Of a DNA stretch of 64,000 nucleotides, positions 31,401 through 35,232 are shown piece after piece. The stretch lies in contig NZ_JAPNJZ010000012.1 in the NCBI RefSeq assembly GCF_026626765.1, positions 205,012-269,011 on the forward strand, in the 5' to 3' direction. Source of the stretch: Corallococcus sp. bb12-1 (lineage in GTDB: Bacteria > Myxococcota > Myxococcia > Myxococcales > Myxococcaceae). The first letter of the stretch is position 1. Every line of letters begins with the position of its first letter. Below the pieces are notes generated by a model. It was given only the letters and a program-made list of their open reading frames with translations, had not been told where the DNA came from and did not search any database. The position numbers and the translations under genes were made by a program.

Positions 31401-32159
31401 ATGGCACAGATCAAGCTCGGAGAACTGCTGATCAAGGCGAACGTCCTGCAGGAGAGCCAGCTCAAGGCGGCGCTCGCCGAGCAGGCCAAGTGGGGCGGGA
31501 AGCTGGGCGAGATCCTCGTCCGGATGAACCTCGTCTCCGAGGACATCCTCGTGCGCGCCCTGTCGAAACAACTGGGCATGCCGGCGGTGAACCTGGACGC
31601 CGTGCAGATGGTTCCGCCGCACGTGAAGGCGAAGATTCCCTCGCAGACGGCGCGCGACTTCTCCGTCGTGCCGCTCCAACTGCGCGACGACGGCAAGACG
31701 TTGGTGGTGGCCATGTCGGACCCGCTCAACGTGCGGGTGCTCGACGAGCTCCGGGCCCTGTCCAAGTGCCGCATCGTGGCCAACGTGGCGGGCCGTACGT
31801 CGGTGGCGCGGGCGTTCGCGCGCCTCTACGAGGAGTCCGCGGAGCTGGAGGACGCGGACACGAACTTCAAGGTGGTGGACGCCCAGGGGCGTACCGTCGT
31901 GAAGAGCCTCAAGGACCTGGAGGCGGCCGGCGCCGCAGCCACCGCGCCCGCTCCGGCCCGTCCGGCGGCCCCCGCGGCCCGTCCGGCGCCCCCCGCGGAG
32001 GCGCCCCGTTCGGCGGCCTCCGGCAGTCCGGCGGAGCTGCTCAAGAGCGTGGAAGAGGTCCAGCGCAAGGAGGTCGCGGCGCTCAAGGCCATGGTGGAGC
32101 TGCTCATCGAGAAGGGCGTTTTTTCTCGCGAGGAATACCTCGCCAAGGTCAAGCGGTAG
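31401..32159 (+). CDS. Stand-alone MshEN (T2SSE_N / GspE N-terminal) domain protein; predicted c-di-GMP binding
   Basis: N-terminus KLGELLIKANVLQESQLKAALAEQ fits the MshEN motif RLGxxL(V/I)xxGx(I/V)xxxQLxxALxxQ. Second …DARDF..VPLQ…D..L.VAM.DPLN region. No ATPase domain. Confidence 0.75.
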   Translation: MAQIKLGELLIKANVLQESQLKAALAEQAKWGGKLGEILVRMNLVSEDILVRALSKQLGMPAVNLDAVQMVPPHVKAKIPSQTARDFSVVPLQLRDDGKTLVVAMSDPLNVRVLDELRALSKCRIVANVAGRTSVARAFARLYEESAELEDADTNFKVVDAQGRTVVKSLKDLEAAGAAATAPAPARPAAPAARPAPPAEAPRSAASGSPAELLKSVEEVQRKEVAALKAMVELLIEKGVFSREEYLAKVKR

Positions 32160-32168
32160 CCAGCGGCC

Positions 32169-33158
32169 ATGCGCAAGAAGATTGGTGAACTCCTCGTCCA
32201 GGCCGGAGTGGTCACGGACGAGCAGGTGAAGCAGGCCCTTGCCTCCGGGCGGCGCGGTCAGGGCCGCAAACTGGGGGAAGTGTTGGTGTCCATGGGCCTG
32301 TGCACCGGCCAGGACATCGCGCGCGCGCTGGCGGCGCAGCACGAGCTGCCCTTCGTGGAGATCCCCGAGTACATCCCCCATGGGGTGTCCTCGCTGGTGT
32401 CCATGGACTTCCAGTCCGAGCATCGCGTGCTGCTCTTCGCGCTGGAGCAGGACGGCCGCAGCGAGAAGCTCCACGTCGCGGTGGAGGACCCTGGCAACCT
32501 CATGTTGGTGGATGAACTGCGCTTCCAGTTGCGCAAGCCCCTGAAGGTGTTCGTCGCTTCCTCGGACGACATGGATCAGGCGCTGGCGCGCGGCCGGGGC
32601 GAACCGCTGGACATCGTGGAGGCTGAACCCATGGATGAGATGGACGACGCGGACGATTCGCCGGACATCCTGCCGTCCCCGCCGCCCGCGCCCGCACGGT
32701 CCTCCGCGCGTCCGCCCGCGCCGCCGCCGCTGGACTGGGACCTGCCGCCCCCACCGCCGTCCGACTCACGTCCCGACGGCGCGGACGTGCTGGAGGACCT
32801 GCTGAGCGCGAAGCCCCGCTCCGCGCCGCCCCCGCCGCCCAAGCCCGCCGCGTCGAGGCCGCCGCCTCCGCCGCCCCCGGAGGACTCCGACCCGAACAAG
32901 CCGCGCGTGCCGGTGGTCGTCTTCGGCGGCGCCGCGCAGGGCGTCCGGCCGTCGATGGCGCTCACGCCCACGCCGGACTTCTCCGAGGAGGACCTGGCGG
33001 TGCTGGACGACATCGAGCGCATCTCGCGCGGTGAAGAGGCCAGCCTGGACACGGAGAAGGTGAAGCCCGCGCGCATGGTCGCGAGCCTCATCCGCCTGCT
33101 CATCCGCAAGGGCCTCATCCAGGAGTCGGAGTTCCTGGAGGAGCTGGCCCAGAAGTGA
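32169..33158 (+). CDS. Stand-alone MshEN (GspE N-terminal) domain protein with long Pro-rich C-terminal region
   Basis: [26 protein letters not shown]…[24 protein letters not shown] (two motif copies). C-terminal helix …[23 protein letters not shown] resembles the C-terminus of the preceding protein. No ATPase domain. Confidence 0.75.
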
Positions 33159-34180
33159 CCGGGGCCGCGCCGTCGTCGGACCCCTCGGCCCCGCTGCTGG
33201 ACGTGCGCGGGCTCACCACCCAGTTGTCGCTGGAGCGAGGGCCGGTGCGCGCGGTGGACGGCGTGTCCTTCACCGTGCCTCCCGGCGGCACGCTGGGGGT
33301 GGTGGGGGAGAGCGGCTGCGGCAAGAGCCTCACCGCGCTGTCGGTGATGCGGCTCATCCCCACGCCGCCCGGCCGGGTGGTGGCAGGGGAGGTGCTCTTC
33401 CGGGGACAGGACCTCTTGCGTCTGCCGGAGCCGGAGATGCGGCGCGTGCGCGGGCGGCACGTGGCCATGGTCTTCCAGGAGCCGATGACGTCGCTCAACC
33501 CCGTCTTCACCGTGGGCGAGCAGATTGGTGAAGGCGTCCGGCTGCACTTGAAGGCGACCCGGGCACAGGCGCGCGAGCGCGCGGTGGAGATGCTCCGGCA
33601 GGTGGGCATCCCGGCCCCCGGCGAGCGCGTGGATGCGTACCCGCACCAGCTCTCCGGCGGCATGCGCCAGCGCGTGATGATCGCCATGGCGCTCGCGTGC
33701 GACCCGGCGCTGCTCATCGCGGACGAGCCCACCACGGCGCTGGACGTCACCATCCAGGCGCAGATCCTCGACCTGCTCAAGAGCCTGCAGACCGAGCGTC
33801 ACATGGCGGTGATGCTCATCACCCACGACCTGGGCGTGGTGGCGGGAAGCTGTGACGCGGTGGTGGTGATGTACGCGGGCCGCATCGTGGAGCAGGCCCC
33901 GGTGCGAGAGCTCTTCGCCCGGCCCGCGCACCCGTACACGGCGGGCCTGTTGCGCTCCATCCCGTCCCTGCACGACGCGGGCTCGGCGGTGGAGGGGGAG
34001 AAGCGCCGGCTGAAGGCGATTCCCGGCATGGTGCCGTCCCTGGGCGCGCTGCCGTCCGGGTGCGCCTTCCGAGACCGCTGCGACCGCGCCTCCGAATTGT
34101 GTGCCCGCGTCACGCCCGCGCTGGAGCTCAAGCGCGGAGGCCAGTGGGCCGCGTGCCACCACCCGGTGCCCGCGCCATGA
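33155..34180 (+). CDS. ABC transporter ATP-binding protein, OppD/DppD type
   Basis: Walker A GESGCGKS. Signature LSGGMRQR. C-terminal oligopeptide-ABC extension. Confidence 0.9.
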
Positions 34181-35232
34181 GCGAACCGCTGGTCCAGGTG
34201 CGTGACCTGAAGGTGCACTTCCCGGTGCGCGGCGGCTTCTTCGGACGCGCGAAGGGCGCGGTGCGCGCGGTGGACGGCGTGTCCTTCGACGTCGCGCGCG
34301 GTGAGACGCTGGGCCTCGTGGGGGAGAGTGGTTGCGGCAAGAGCACGCTGGGCCGCGCGGTGCTGCGCCTGCTGGAGCCCACGGCCGGCTCCATCCGCGT
34401 GGACGGACGCGAACTCACCGGCCTGTCGCAGCGCCAGTTGCGGCCCCTGCGTCGGCGCATGCAGCTCGTCTTCCAGGATCCGTACGCCTCGCTCAACCCG
34501 CGCATGACGGTGGGGGACATCCTCGCGGAGCCCTTCGCCATCCACGGCCTCGCGAAGGGCAAGGCGCGCGAGGAGGAGGTGCTGGCGCTCCTGGACGCCA
34601 TGGGCCTGCCTCGCGAGGCCCGGCACCGCTACCCGCACGAGTTCTCCGGCGGGCAACGTCAACGCATCGGGATTGCACGTGCCATCGCGTTGCGTCCGGA
34701 CCTGGTGGTGGCGGACGAGCCCATCAGCGCGCTGGACGTCTCCATCCAGGCGCAGATCGTCAACCTGCTGGTGGACCTGCAGCGCGAGCGCGGGCTCACC
34801 TATGTCTTCATCGCGCACGACCTGAAGATCGTGGAGTACGTGTCCACGCGCGTGGCGGTGATGTACCTGGGCCGCATCGTGGAGGTGGCGCCGTCGCGCG
34901 TGCTGTACGCCGGGCCCCGGCATCCGTACACGCAGGCGCTCCTGTCCGCGGTGCCCGTGCCGGATCCGGAGCGTCCCCGCACGCGCCTGCTCCTGCCGGG
35001 CGAGCCGCCCTCGCCGCTGTCTCCCCCGTCCGGGTGCTCGTTCCACCCTCGCTGCCCCTACGTGATGGAGCGCTGCCGGCGTGAGTCGCCGCCGCTCTAC
35101 CCGCTGGGGGACGGCCACGCCGCCGCGTGCTTCCTGGCCGAAGGGGACGCGCAGCGCGCCGGGCCCGTTCCCCCTGTTTCCGCGTCCGACGGAGGTCCCG
35201 GTGTTCTGGCTCAGCCATCATCACGCGGATGA
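34177..35232 (+). CDS. ABC transporter ATP-binding protein, OppF/DppF type
   Basis: Walker [10 protein letters not shown]. Signature [12 protein letters not shown] overlap with the previous gene. Confidence 0.9.

Follow-up and report, generated by a model that had tools for sequence, protein, structure and literature searches.

Gene content of the locus

Positions 31401-35232 of a 64,000-nucleotide stretch of the Corallococcus sp. bb12-1 genome (contig NZ_JAPNJZ010000012.1, positions 205,012 to 269,011 of the forward strand; hereafter the window) contain four tightly packed plus-strand genes. The first two encode stand-alone MshEN-domain proteins, here called MshEN1 and MshEN2, and the last two encode ABC ATPases of the OppD and OppF type. 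Genes were called in the window, which has a G+C content of about 70%, by third-position GC bias (GC3) and were checked with Pfam. Orthologues of all four are found in Myxococcus xanthus, as MXAN_4667 (MshEN1), MXAN_4666 (MshEN2), MXAN_4665 (OppD) and MXAN_4664 (OppF), and MshEN1 is 84% identical to the protein of M. xanthus DK1622 and 100% identical to a database protein of Corallococcus sp. bb12-1. A gap of 9 nt separates MshEN1 from MshEN2, while the MshEN2/OppD and OppD/OppF junctions are GTGA and ATGA overlaps. With the three genes that follow, they make up a seven-gene operon-like block, MshEN1-MshEN2-OppD-OppF-DUF2085-ECF sigma-ZAS anti-sigma (ECF, extracytoplasmic function), which abuts cluster 2 of the Kil system, a killing machine of the Tad type. 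The block and the lipoprotein gene upstream of it are as follows.

30514-31341, plus strand: DUF4292/LolB-like outer-membrane lipoprotein (Pfam DUF4292, 1e-12; NCBIfam LolB1, 1e-9) with an N-terminal lipobox, LLCSAC
31401-32159, plus strand: MshEN1, 252 aa (PF05157 MshEN, E 4e-15)
32169-33158, plus strand: MshEN2, 329 aa (PF05157 MshEN, E 3e-12)
33155-34180, plus strand: OppD-like ABC ATPase (ABC_tran, E 1e-29; oligo_HPY, E 4e-18)
34177-35232, plus strand: OppF-like ABC ATPase (ABC_tran, E 1e-33; oligo_HPY, E 5e-19), true start at 34177
35201-35608, plus strand: DUF2085 small membrane protein, orthologue of MXAN_4663 (Pfam DUF2085, 8e-10), with a GTG start and a 32-nt overlap with OppF
35672-36319, plus strand: ECF sigma factor, orthologue of MXAN_4662 (Pfam Sigma70_r2 and r4_2; NCBIfam NF009166, 267.9 bits against a cut-off of 206)
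36316-37761, plus strand: ZAS-type membrane anti-sigma factor, orthologue of MXAN_4661 (Pfam zf-HC2; H-x3-C-x2-C motif and transmembrane segment in the translation)

In M. xanthus, "Operon 24" is predicted to run from MXAN_4667 to MXAN_4661 (Kuzmich et al. 2022), and a strong transcription start site (TSS) lies 5 nt upstream of the MXAN_4667 start codon (Table S2 of the same study). Three promoter-like features can be placed in the window.

31383-31388, plus strand: putative -10 element TACACT, read from the sequence
31383-31396, plus strand: near-leaderless transcription start at about 31396, expected by homology with the M. xanthus TSS
35549-35589, plus strand: promoter-like block GTGACAG-N10-TCCCTGTCATTCTCGCCACTTACC upstream of the sigma gene, invariant in an alignment of 12 genomes from several genera

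The last of these overlaps the 3′ end of the DUF2085 gene, and its position fits an internal M. xanthus TSS found 66 nt upstream of MXAN_4662 (Kuzmich et al. 2022, supplement). It looks like a sigma-A-type -35/-10 pair with a possible regulator site rather than an ECF promoter. A simple promoter and terminator scan of 29-38.5 kb was uninformative for the operon; its one sigma-70-like site lies upstream of kilB.

MshEN domains of MshEN1 and MshEN2

The original prediction described two tandem proteins that each consist of an MshEN domain with no ATPase domain attached. This description holds, as Pfam identifies MshEN in both proteins and the T2SSE ATPase domain in neither, and the profile search that had been suggested gives PF05157 scores of 56 bits (MshEN1) and 46.8 bits (MshEN2), where the cut-off is 23.1. 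NCBIfam NF053729, a 53-residue model of the MshE-type cyclic di-GMP (c-di-GMP) motif with a curated cut-off of 38, is also matched by both (MshEN1, 64.8 bits; MshEN2, 62.2 bits). The published motif comprises two tandem 24-residue half-sites of the form RLGxx(L/V/I)(L/V/I)xxG(L/V/I)(L/V/I)xxxxLxxxLxxQ (Wang et al. 2016, PMC5013675). In MshEN1, positions 2, 3, 6, 7, 11, 12, 17, 21 and 24 of both half-sites are as in the motif, with K standing at position 1 and N at position 10. The motif RLGxxLxxxGxxxxxQLxxALxxQ had been claimed for both proteins; both pass NF053729, but all four half-sites begin with KLG or KIG and not with RLG. The spacer between half-sites is AKWGG (5 residues) in MshEN1 and RRGQGR (6 residues) in MshEN2.

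Conservation of the site was examined in 40 members of the MshEN1 family, which share 35-59% identity. Positions 1 (R/K), 2, 3, 6, 17, 21 and 24 are near-invariant in both half-sites, with R and K alternating at position 1, Q24 kept in 37/37 and 35/38 sequences, and the spacer measuring exactly 5 residues in all 37 sequences in which it was compared. MshEN2 evolves faster, with a between-genera identity of 42-59% vs 73-85% for MshEN1. The Gln of its half-site I is lost in Corallococcus and Myxococcus, and distant lineages keep a canonical site and a canonical spacer (RQWGG).

Searches with phmmer match the MshEN proteins to PDB sequences of the PilB, PilF and MshE N-domains. An AlphaFold2 (AF2) model of MshEN1 has a predicted local distance difference test (pLDDT) score of 87 when built from a diverse family alignment and of 47 when built from a shallow orthologue alignment. 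In the former, residues 1-150 superpose on c-di-GMP-bound MshE-N (5HTL) with a TM-score of 0.84 and a root-mean-square deviation of 2.4 Å, and also on PilF GSPII-B with c-di-GMP bound; XcPilB-N:PilZ structures match the model too. MshEN1 consists of an MshEN domain (residues 1-150), a disordered Ala/Pro-rich linker and a near-invariant C-terminal helix-turn-helix (residues 208-252). MshEN2 has the same order of parts: an MshEN domain whose half-site I is partly degenerate, a variable Pro/acidic-rich linker and a related C-terminal hairpin. Because MshEN1 passes NF053729, its model matches c-di-GMP-bound folds and its motif is conserved family-wide, it is a strong in-silico candidate for a c-di-GMP receptor.

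With the MshEN domains of MshE, PilB, PilF and NfrB (PMC5013675), the proteins of the window share the four-helix bundle and alpha/beta subdomain and the two tandem 24-residue half-sites, and MshEN1 shares the 5-residue spacer. They differ in carrying no fused enzyme, in their disordered linker and family-specific helix-turn-helix and in being encoded as a conserved gene pair, as well as in the Lys that takes the place of the stacking Arg in all four half-sites and in the degenerate half-site I and spacer of MshEN2. The difference from the secretion ATPases GspE, PilB, MshE and CpaF is of the same kind: PF00437 is absent from MshEN1 and MshEN2, and only the linker and hairpin follow the MshEN domain. 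Up to 22 MshEN genes have been counted in M. xanthus (Wang et al. 2016, PMC5013675), and another count gives 17; MXAN_4667 and MXAN_4666 are already catalogued among its MshEN proteins in the supplement of Kuzmich et al. (2022).

A family defined by its C-terminal hairpin

A similar C-terminal helix had also been claimed for the two proteins. The ends of both are indeed related: each is a helix-turn-helix with the pattern LLIxKGhh...EYL/EFL, near-invariant in MshEN1, and a hidden Markov model (HMM) of the MshEN1 C-terminus scores that of MshEN2 at 10.1 bits, a score equalled by 1 of 1160 shuffles. A search with the last 45 residues of MshEN1 against 1.84 billion representatives yielded 85 clusters at the 50% level. 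In all 85 the hairpin module lies at the extreme C-terminus, in proteins of 190-370 aa, and the MshEN domain is the only domain in 39 of 40 full-length family members. The named sources of the family are all Myxococcota or "Deltaproteobacteria" metagenome-assembled genomes, and by these database matches the stand-alone MshEN family appears so far to be confined to Myxococcota. The possibility that the hairpin is a third MshEN half-site was considered and rejected: an HMM of 74 half-motifs scored it at -4.6 to 6.5 bits, with a shuffle maximum of 7.3.

MshEN1 and MshEN2, both cytoplasmic, belong to a definable and new family of MshEN proteins that stand alone, occur in pairs and share a conserved putative docking module at the C-terminus, an architecture that had not been part of the known range of MshEN receptors. 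The novelty lies in the arrangement, since the domains themselves are known and the M. xanthus genes are already listed in supplements.

Conserved neighbourhood across Myxococcota

Gene order around MshEN1 was compared in 33 genome loci, 80 metagenome loci and further contigs to which OppB homologues led (loci are given L numbers). DUF4292 lies directly upstream of MshEN1 in 48 of the 64 metagenome loci with enough sequence, OppC taking that place in 7 of the 64, and MshEN2 lies directly downstream in 56/62. Where 4.5 kb or more of downstream sequence was available (25 loci), 23 loci have an ECF sigma gene after MshEN1 and 8 have an ABC ATPase gene. CpaB/TadB genes follow in 11 of 17, and 10 of the 11 Tad-linked loci have no ABC ATPase. 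The most constant neighbours of the MshEN pair are therefore the LolB-like lipoprotein upstream and the ECF sigma/ZAS anti-sigma pair downstream; the zf-HC2 anti-sigma factor was confirmed in the window and in L029, L120, L034 and GCA_041447055.

A tree of MshEN1, the sigma factor and DUF4292 resolves three clades. Clade 1, which includes the window, combines opp genes, in complete or reduced form, with Tad genes. Clade 2 has the order DUF4292-MshEN1-MshEN2-(HD-GYP-like)-sigma-ZAS anti-sigma-CpaB-TadB and contains no opp genes; its identity to the window is 45-49% for MshEN1, 43-48% for CpaB and 50-58% for TadB. In 24 clade 2 loci (for example L120:10740-11654, L081, L087 and L101) the slot between MshEN2 and sigma holds the HD-GYP-like gene. 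Its product of about 300 aa carries the residues HDVGM...HHT...GFGYP and scores 23.8 bits with Pfam HD_5, below the cut-off, and could be a divergent c-di-GMP phosphodiesterase or receptor. Clade 3 has the order TPR-DUF4292-MshEN1-MshEN2-sigma-anti-sigma with no Tad genes nearby, so that a cassette devoid of both opp and Tad genes still retains the sigma/anti-sigma pair.

One sub-lineage of clade 3 (L125 and L127) has short PepT-type ATPase genes between MshEN2 and sigma, with no permease gene nearby. L125:11507-12870 encodes ATPases of 212 and 266 aa and L127:11735-12526 one of 263 aa; these lack oligo_HPY, but those of L125 have kept their catalytic motifs. The closest matches, respectively, are to OppD at 39% and to OppF at 46%. 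This is a second, independent instance of orphan Opp-like ATPases following the MshEN pair.

Within the Myxococcaceae, a 20-kb gene order reaching from a HEAT-cyclophilin gene to the sigma gene is conserved, and because the whole region is conserved, synteny inside this family is weak evidence when taken alone. As the DUF4292 proteins carry lipoboxes they lie outside the cytoplasm, which leaves the ECF sigma factor and the zinc-binding N-domain of the anti-sigma factor as the only cytoplasmic companions of the MshEN pair in all three clades. The results define a new conserved cassette made up of the MshEN pair, the LolB-like lipoprotein and the ECF sigma/ZAS anti-sigma pair. Its linkage to Kil-type Tad genes in two deep clades is likewise new and argues for an extended Kil cluster 2.

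MshEN2 is absent in L022, L026, L058 and L061. Its length ranges from 290 to 1836 aa, against 220-370 aa for MshEN1, with huge homologues of 1000-1836 aa at L032:10748-16261, L043:9830-14068 and L039:3270-6335. Their size is presumably due to an acidic, Pro-rich, disordered linker between the MshEN domain and the hairpin. On one metagenome contig (L129:320-4100), two MshEN1-MshEN2 pairs are arranged convergently.

OppD/OppF and the loss of oppABC

OppD and OppF have intact Walker A, Walker B, Q-loop, LSGG signature and H-loop motifs and four C-terminal Cys residues. OppD matches the solved structures of Mycobacterium tuberculosis OppD (1e-123) and Escherichia coli DppD (1e-100). OppF scores above the cut-off of NCBIfam NF008453, a dipeptide ABC ATP-binding subfamily (416.7 vs 408), and OppD scores 369.9 bits with the DppD-type dipeptide ATP-binding model NF008246, under its equivalog cut-off of 541. 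In the combination of ABC_tran and oligo_HPY, the four Cys and the catalytic motifs, they resemble the Opp/Dpp importers (PepT, TC 3.A.1.5; M. tuberculosis OppABCD, E. coli DppBCDF), with matches of 1e-123 to 1e-93 to solved OppD/DppD. They differ from them in that the 64 kb contain no permease or binding-protein genes, in that the operon of their relatives is split by the MshEN genes between oppC and oppD, and in the translational coupling of a DUF2085 membrane protein to OppF. Ratios of nonsynonymous to synonymous substitution (dN/dS) in four independent genome pairs are 0.13-0.21 for OppD and 0.07-0.21 for OppF, and since such values (0.07-0.21) indicate purifying selection, the two proteins are evidently still used.

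The absence of a cognate permease and binding protein, noted in the original prediction, was confirmed: OppA, OppB and OppC of a relative, searched against the window with tblastn, gave a best E of 0.6. The discovery of permease and binding-protein genes that these ATPases clearly serve, which was to count against the proposed module, applies to relatives and not to this genome. In sister lineages the cognate OppA, OppB and OppC, although not in the window, are encoded in the orthologous operon, in the order OppA-OppB-OppC-MshEN1-MshEN2-OppD-OppF, in uncultured Myxococcota. The complete order is found in L025, L027-31, L034-36, L062-68, L071, L072, L076 and GCA_041447055, and in its fuller form reads ExbD-ExbB, DUF4292-OppABC-MshEN1-MshEN2-OppDF-DUF2085-ECF sigma-anti-sigma(-Flp-CpaB-TadB). 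In L025, the closest lineage with a complete operon, OppD and OppF are 71-74% identical to those of the window.

The reduced state is found in all sampled cultured Myxococcaceae and Archangiaceae and in L026, L058 and L061. Trees nest it inside the Opp-containing clade, and in the window MshEN1 begins 60 nt after DUF4292, from which it follows that oppABC was deleted. These are neighbour-joining trees, midpoint-rooted and without an outgroup, in which the polarity of opp gain versus loss can be read within clade 1 only; for that clade, loss of oppABC is well supported. Accelerated evolution of OppDF after the loss was considered and discarded, as low identities of 43-47% are limited to L027-31, L025 stands at 71-74% and dN/dS is ordinary. 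Among the best 120 OppB matches, which reach down to 53% identity, there is no close orthologue from cultured Myxococcaceae; more distant paralogues may exist. A 2013 survey (PMC3924187) lists three PepT-family ABC uptake proteins for M. xanthus, which is reported to depend mainly on OPT carriers, without specifying whether the three are membrane permeases or include MXAN_4664/4665.

OppD and OppF are thus ordinary PepT-family importer subunits, the remnant of a real importer and not an energiser of the Tad machine. Most likely they either still energise a PepT-type permease whose genes lie elsewhere or act as a further, lineage-specific output of the MshEN sensors. A precedent for the former exists in MsiK of Streptomyces, an ABC ATPase encoded apart from its permeases (PMC3924187). 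As in that case, an ATPase without adjacent permease genes can stay functional by serving permeases encoded elsewhere; MsiK, however, is a single MalK-type ATPase for sugar importers, whereas OppD/OppF is a heterodimer orphaned by the deletion of oppABC. The membrane partner of the orphan ATPases could also be DUF2085, which has conserved CxRC and DWAxGRFRP motifs. In clade 1 the DUF2085 gene always follows OppF and is translationally coupled to it; it occurs only where OppDF is present and outlives the loss of OppABC, and by its coordinates OppF overlaps DUF2085 by 32 nt in M. xanthus as well. New, too, is the opp operon with sensor genes set among its own, in which the ATPase half has outlived the permease half. 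The history of this importer is unusual: its permease and binding-protein genes were deleted, and its two ATPase genes were kept under purifying selection across a whole bacterial family.

Kil genes beside the cassette

Tad-type genes begin, with CpaB, 3.1 kb downstream of the MshEN/Opp genes, with DUF2085 and the ECF sigma/anti-sigma pair in between.

37854-38114, plus strand: Flp-like prepilin open reading frame (ORF), KilK-like (G/QAMVEY motif alone; no Pfam match)
38342-39157, plus strand: CpaB/KilB (Pfam RcpC)
39230-40075, plus strand: TadB/KilG (Pfam T2SSF)
40089-40979, plus strand: TadC/KilH (Pfam T2SSF)
41053-44253, plus strand: FHA protein (Pfam FHA)
44281-46029, plus strand: FHA-TPR protein (Pfam FHA)

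Kil cluster 2 was defined as MXAN_4648-4661 (Seef et al. 2021). The interval 36316-46029 of the window holds the orthologues of MXAN_4661 and MXAN_4652-4648, in an order matching Supplementary file 1 of that study, where MXAN_4661 is given as a "putative zinc-finger" and is the outermost gene of the cluster. The MshEN/Opp orthologues MXAN_4664-4667 fall outside the published cluster. The window differs from M. xanthus at this site in lacking the eight-gene pilin block MXAN_4653-4660. Only about 580 nt (37762-38341), with one Flp-like ORF, separate the anti-sigma gene from kilB, and the same is seen in C. exercitus (L003); in M. xanthus the interval contains the eight genes MXAN_4653-4660, including the tip pilins KilL4, KilN4 and KilM4. 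Given the short interval and its single Flp-like ORF, the Corallococcus site does not contain the "tip 4" minor-pilin set.

That the cluster contains no CpaF ATPase, as had been stated, agrees with our scan, in which T2SSE/CpaF was absent from all GC3-supported window genes scanned (a few small ORFs were left unscanned). The Tad locus needs no substitute ATPase. The Kil system is split, and the Tad ATPase is missing at this locus because KilF (CpaF, MXAN_3107) is encoded in cluster 1. Of the c-di-GMP-responsive regulatory or energising module that was proposed for the Tad machine, what stands is that both proteins carry receptor-like motifs and that the pair is linked to Kil-type Tad genes well beyond the genus; an energising role of OppDF is not supported. 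The suggested comparison of oppD/oppF-like genes beside Kil-type loci shows the linkage in clade 1 only, and 10 of the 11 Tad-linked metagenome loci lack any ABC ATPase.

MXAN_4666 and MXAN_4667 are mildly down-regulated in development, with a log2 fold change of -0.4 to -0.8 (Kuzmich et al. 2022, supplement), whereas starvation is reported to induce the kil genes. Neither of the main publications on Kil (Seef et al. 2021; Nat Commun 2025) mentions c-di-GMP, a sigma factor or MXAN_4662-4667, and the Kil papers report no deletion of the latter. Literature searches for MXAN_4662-4667 found no paper text discussing these genes, and searches for MshEN together with ECF or anti-sigma factors found nothing relevant.

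Possible roles of the MshEN pair

We tentatively propose that MshEN1, with or without MshEN2, binds c-di-GMP and that the pair acts through its C-terminal hairpins on the sigma/anti-sigma switch of the same operon, a reading that we regard as plausible though somewhat short of probable. In this scheme, MshEN1 would bind c-di-GMP in its N-terminal four-helix bundle, as its motif and model suggest, and MshEN2, with half-site I degenerate here, may bind it more weakly. Pairing or docking of the two proteins would occur by way of their hairpins, and their target would be the ECF sigma factor together with the zinc-binding N-domain of the membrane anti-sigma factor. The pair would in this way set the activity of a sigma factor encoded next to Kil platform genes, which may itself control those platform genes; in clades 1 and 2 they lie directly downstream of the switch. 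Any effect of c-di-GMP on the Tad-like killing machine would then be regulatory and indirect. MshEN1 and MshEN2 are candidate regulators of predation, and they do not stand in for the motor of the pilus. In the RsiG-sigma WhiG system of Streptomyces, it depends on a second messenger whether the anti-sigma factor holds its sigma factor, and RsiG itself binds c-di-GMP through helical motifs. The likeness is one of proposed mechanism only; here sensing would fall to separate MshEN proteins, and a membrane ZAS protein serves as anti-sigma factor.

Several observations weigh against this proposal. At the putative binding site, the N of MshEN1 at the Gly-10 turn goes beyond even the relaxed published motif, K replaces the canonical R at position 1 of all four half-sites, and half-site I of MshEN2 ends in G, with no Gln. 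The sigma/anti-sigma pair is singled out as the likely target by co-occurrence and cell compartment alone, and the metagenome loci behind the co-occurrence are not phylogenetically independent. One distant locus, L043, has the MshEN pair without an adjacent sigma gene. The promoter of the sigma gene looks sigma-A-like and not like that of an autoregulated ECF factor. Permease-less PepT-type ATPases follow the MshEN pair in two distant clades (the reduced lineages of clade 1, and L125/L127), and MshEN2 and OppD are translationally coupled in the window; the recurrence and the coupling favour a direct link between MshEN proteins and ATPases.

Such a link is the substance of one alternative, in which MshEN1 and MshEN2 bind OppD and OppF, one sensor to each subunit, and put their ATPase activity under c-di-GMP control, much as the MshEN domain does in cis in the MshE and PilB ATPases. 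Peptide import would be gated in the relatives with full operons, and in the window the permease would lie elsewhere or DUF2085 would serve as partner. In its favour, several lineages have a complete opp operon in which the pair lies after the permease genes and ahead of the ATPase genes. The model also accords with the overlapping start and stop codons at MshEN2/OppD, OppD/OppF and OppF/DUF2085, with the purifying selection on OppDF after the loss of oppABC and with the short permease-less PepT-type ATPases in the same slot in the distant L125 and L127. The three PepT-family uptake proteins of M. xanthus (PMC3924187) would allow for a permease in trans. However, the pair and its near-invariant hairpin are unchanged where the locus has no ABC ATPase (24 loci of clade 2; L044/45/48-50), an ATPase is present in just 8 of the 25 sufficiently long loci, L026, L058 and L061 retain OppDF without MshEN2, and the literature searched contains no MshEN-ABC transporter link. 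We consider a gated ABC module rather unlikely. Less likely again is a direct action on the Kil machine, in which the pair would supply in trans a c-di-GMP-sensing N-domain to KilF, KilG/H or the FHA proteins and thereby control assembly at prey contacts. To our knowledge, CpaF-type ATPases carry no such N-domain. The synteny DUF4292-MshEN1-MshEN2-...-sigma-anti-sigma-CpaB-TadB is kept between two deep clades, the pair shares a predicted operon with MXAN_4661 of the published cluster 2, MshEN-type N-domains are known as docking platforms (for example XcPilB-N:PilZ), and Kil assembly at prey contact has been described as dynamic with no regulator named. Yet clade 3 has the pair and sigma/anti-sigma with no Tad genes nearby, the KilF motor is encoded in the other cluster, MXAN_4666/4667 go down in development as opposed to the starvation-induced kil genes, and the two main Kil papers are silent on c-di-GMP and on MXAN_4662-4667.

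It is also conceivable, though we think it quite improbable, that the arrangement reflects inherited synteny with no shared function, OppDF being housekeeping importer ATPases for a permease encoded elsewhere and the adjacency of the MshEN and Opp genes to each other and to the Tad genes historical. MshEN1 and MshEN2 are, after all, just two of about 17-22 MshEN paralogues in Myxococcus-type genomes, and the whole 20-kb gene order is conserved in the Myxococcaceae. Against this, the proteins of the cassette remain 35-50% identical between three deep clades that differ in the genes around it, its junctions are tight or overlapping, and the slot between MshEN2 and sigma holds another gene of c-di-GMP type, the HD-GYP-like gene, in clade 2.

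A broader claim, covering both action through the sigma/anti-sigma switch and docking to Kil components, would be that MshEN1 and MshEN2 are the first stand-alone, trans-acting MshEN sensors to couple c-di-GMP to the Kil machine; this is possible but doubtful. OppD/OppF, long kept without a permease, may also have been taken over to give these sensors an ATP-dependent output. If the trans-acting coupling were true, Kil cluster 2 would be extended by seven genes, MXAN_4662-4668. The analysis bears on two questions about Kil, namely how assembly is restricted to prey contact and how the kil genes are controlled. It offers conserved candidates for these roles in the putative c-di-GMP sensor pair, in the ECF sigma/anti-sigma switch that shares an operon with the outermost cluster 2 gene and in a nearby HD-GYP phosphodiesterase.

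Flanking genes

Upstream of the cassette lie the following genes.

23614-24735, minus strand: response-regulator HD-GYP phosphodiesterase, orthologue of MXAN_4675 (Pfam Response_reg and HD_5, 1e-34; HD at residue 206, GYP at residue 267)
29266-29721, minus strand: ExbD (Pfam ExbD, 5.5e-29), divergent from the cassette
29740-30471, minus strand: ExbB (Pfam MotA_ExbB, 3.2e-29), divergent from the cassette

The position of ExbD/ExbB is kept across clade 1 loci, and the MXAN_4675-type HD-GYP gene is syntenic across the same clade. MXAN_4675 is entered as HD-GYP in Table S1 of Kuzmich et al. (2022). A second flanking gene of c-di-GMP type, at 53967-56519 on the plus strand, encodes a GAF-HisKA-HATPase-REC protein with a degenerate GGDEF-like C-terminus and corresponds to MXAN_4640 by gene order. 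Together with the HD-GYP gene (23614-24735) it may form a local c-di-GMP signalling neighbourhood. We take the protein to be TmoK.

A chemosensory cluster occupies 3000-11603 on the minus strand and encodes CheR, CheB, an ABC1 atypical kinase, a methyl-accepting chemotaxis protein and a CheA-CheW fusion. The chemotaxis receptor (6890-8950) has an N-terminal bacterial-type globin and a PAS domain. At the other end of the window, three tandem bactofilin genes are followed by a gene for a ParB-like protein (59388-62340, plus strand). This block matches the BacNOP-PadC arrangement of M. xanthus, and it helped to anchor the MXAN numbering used here.

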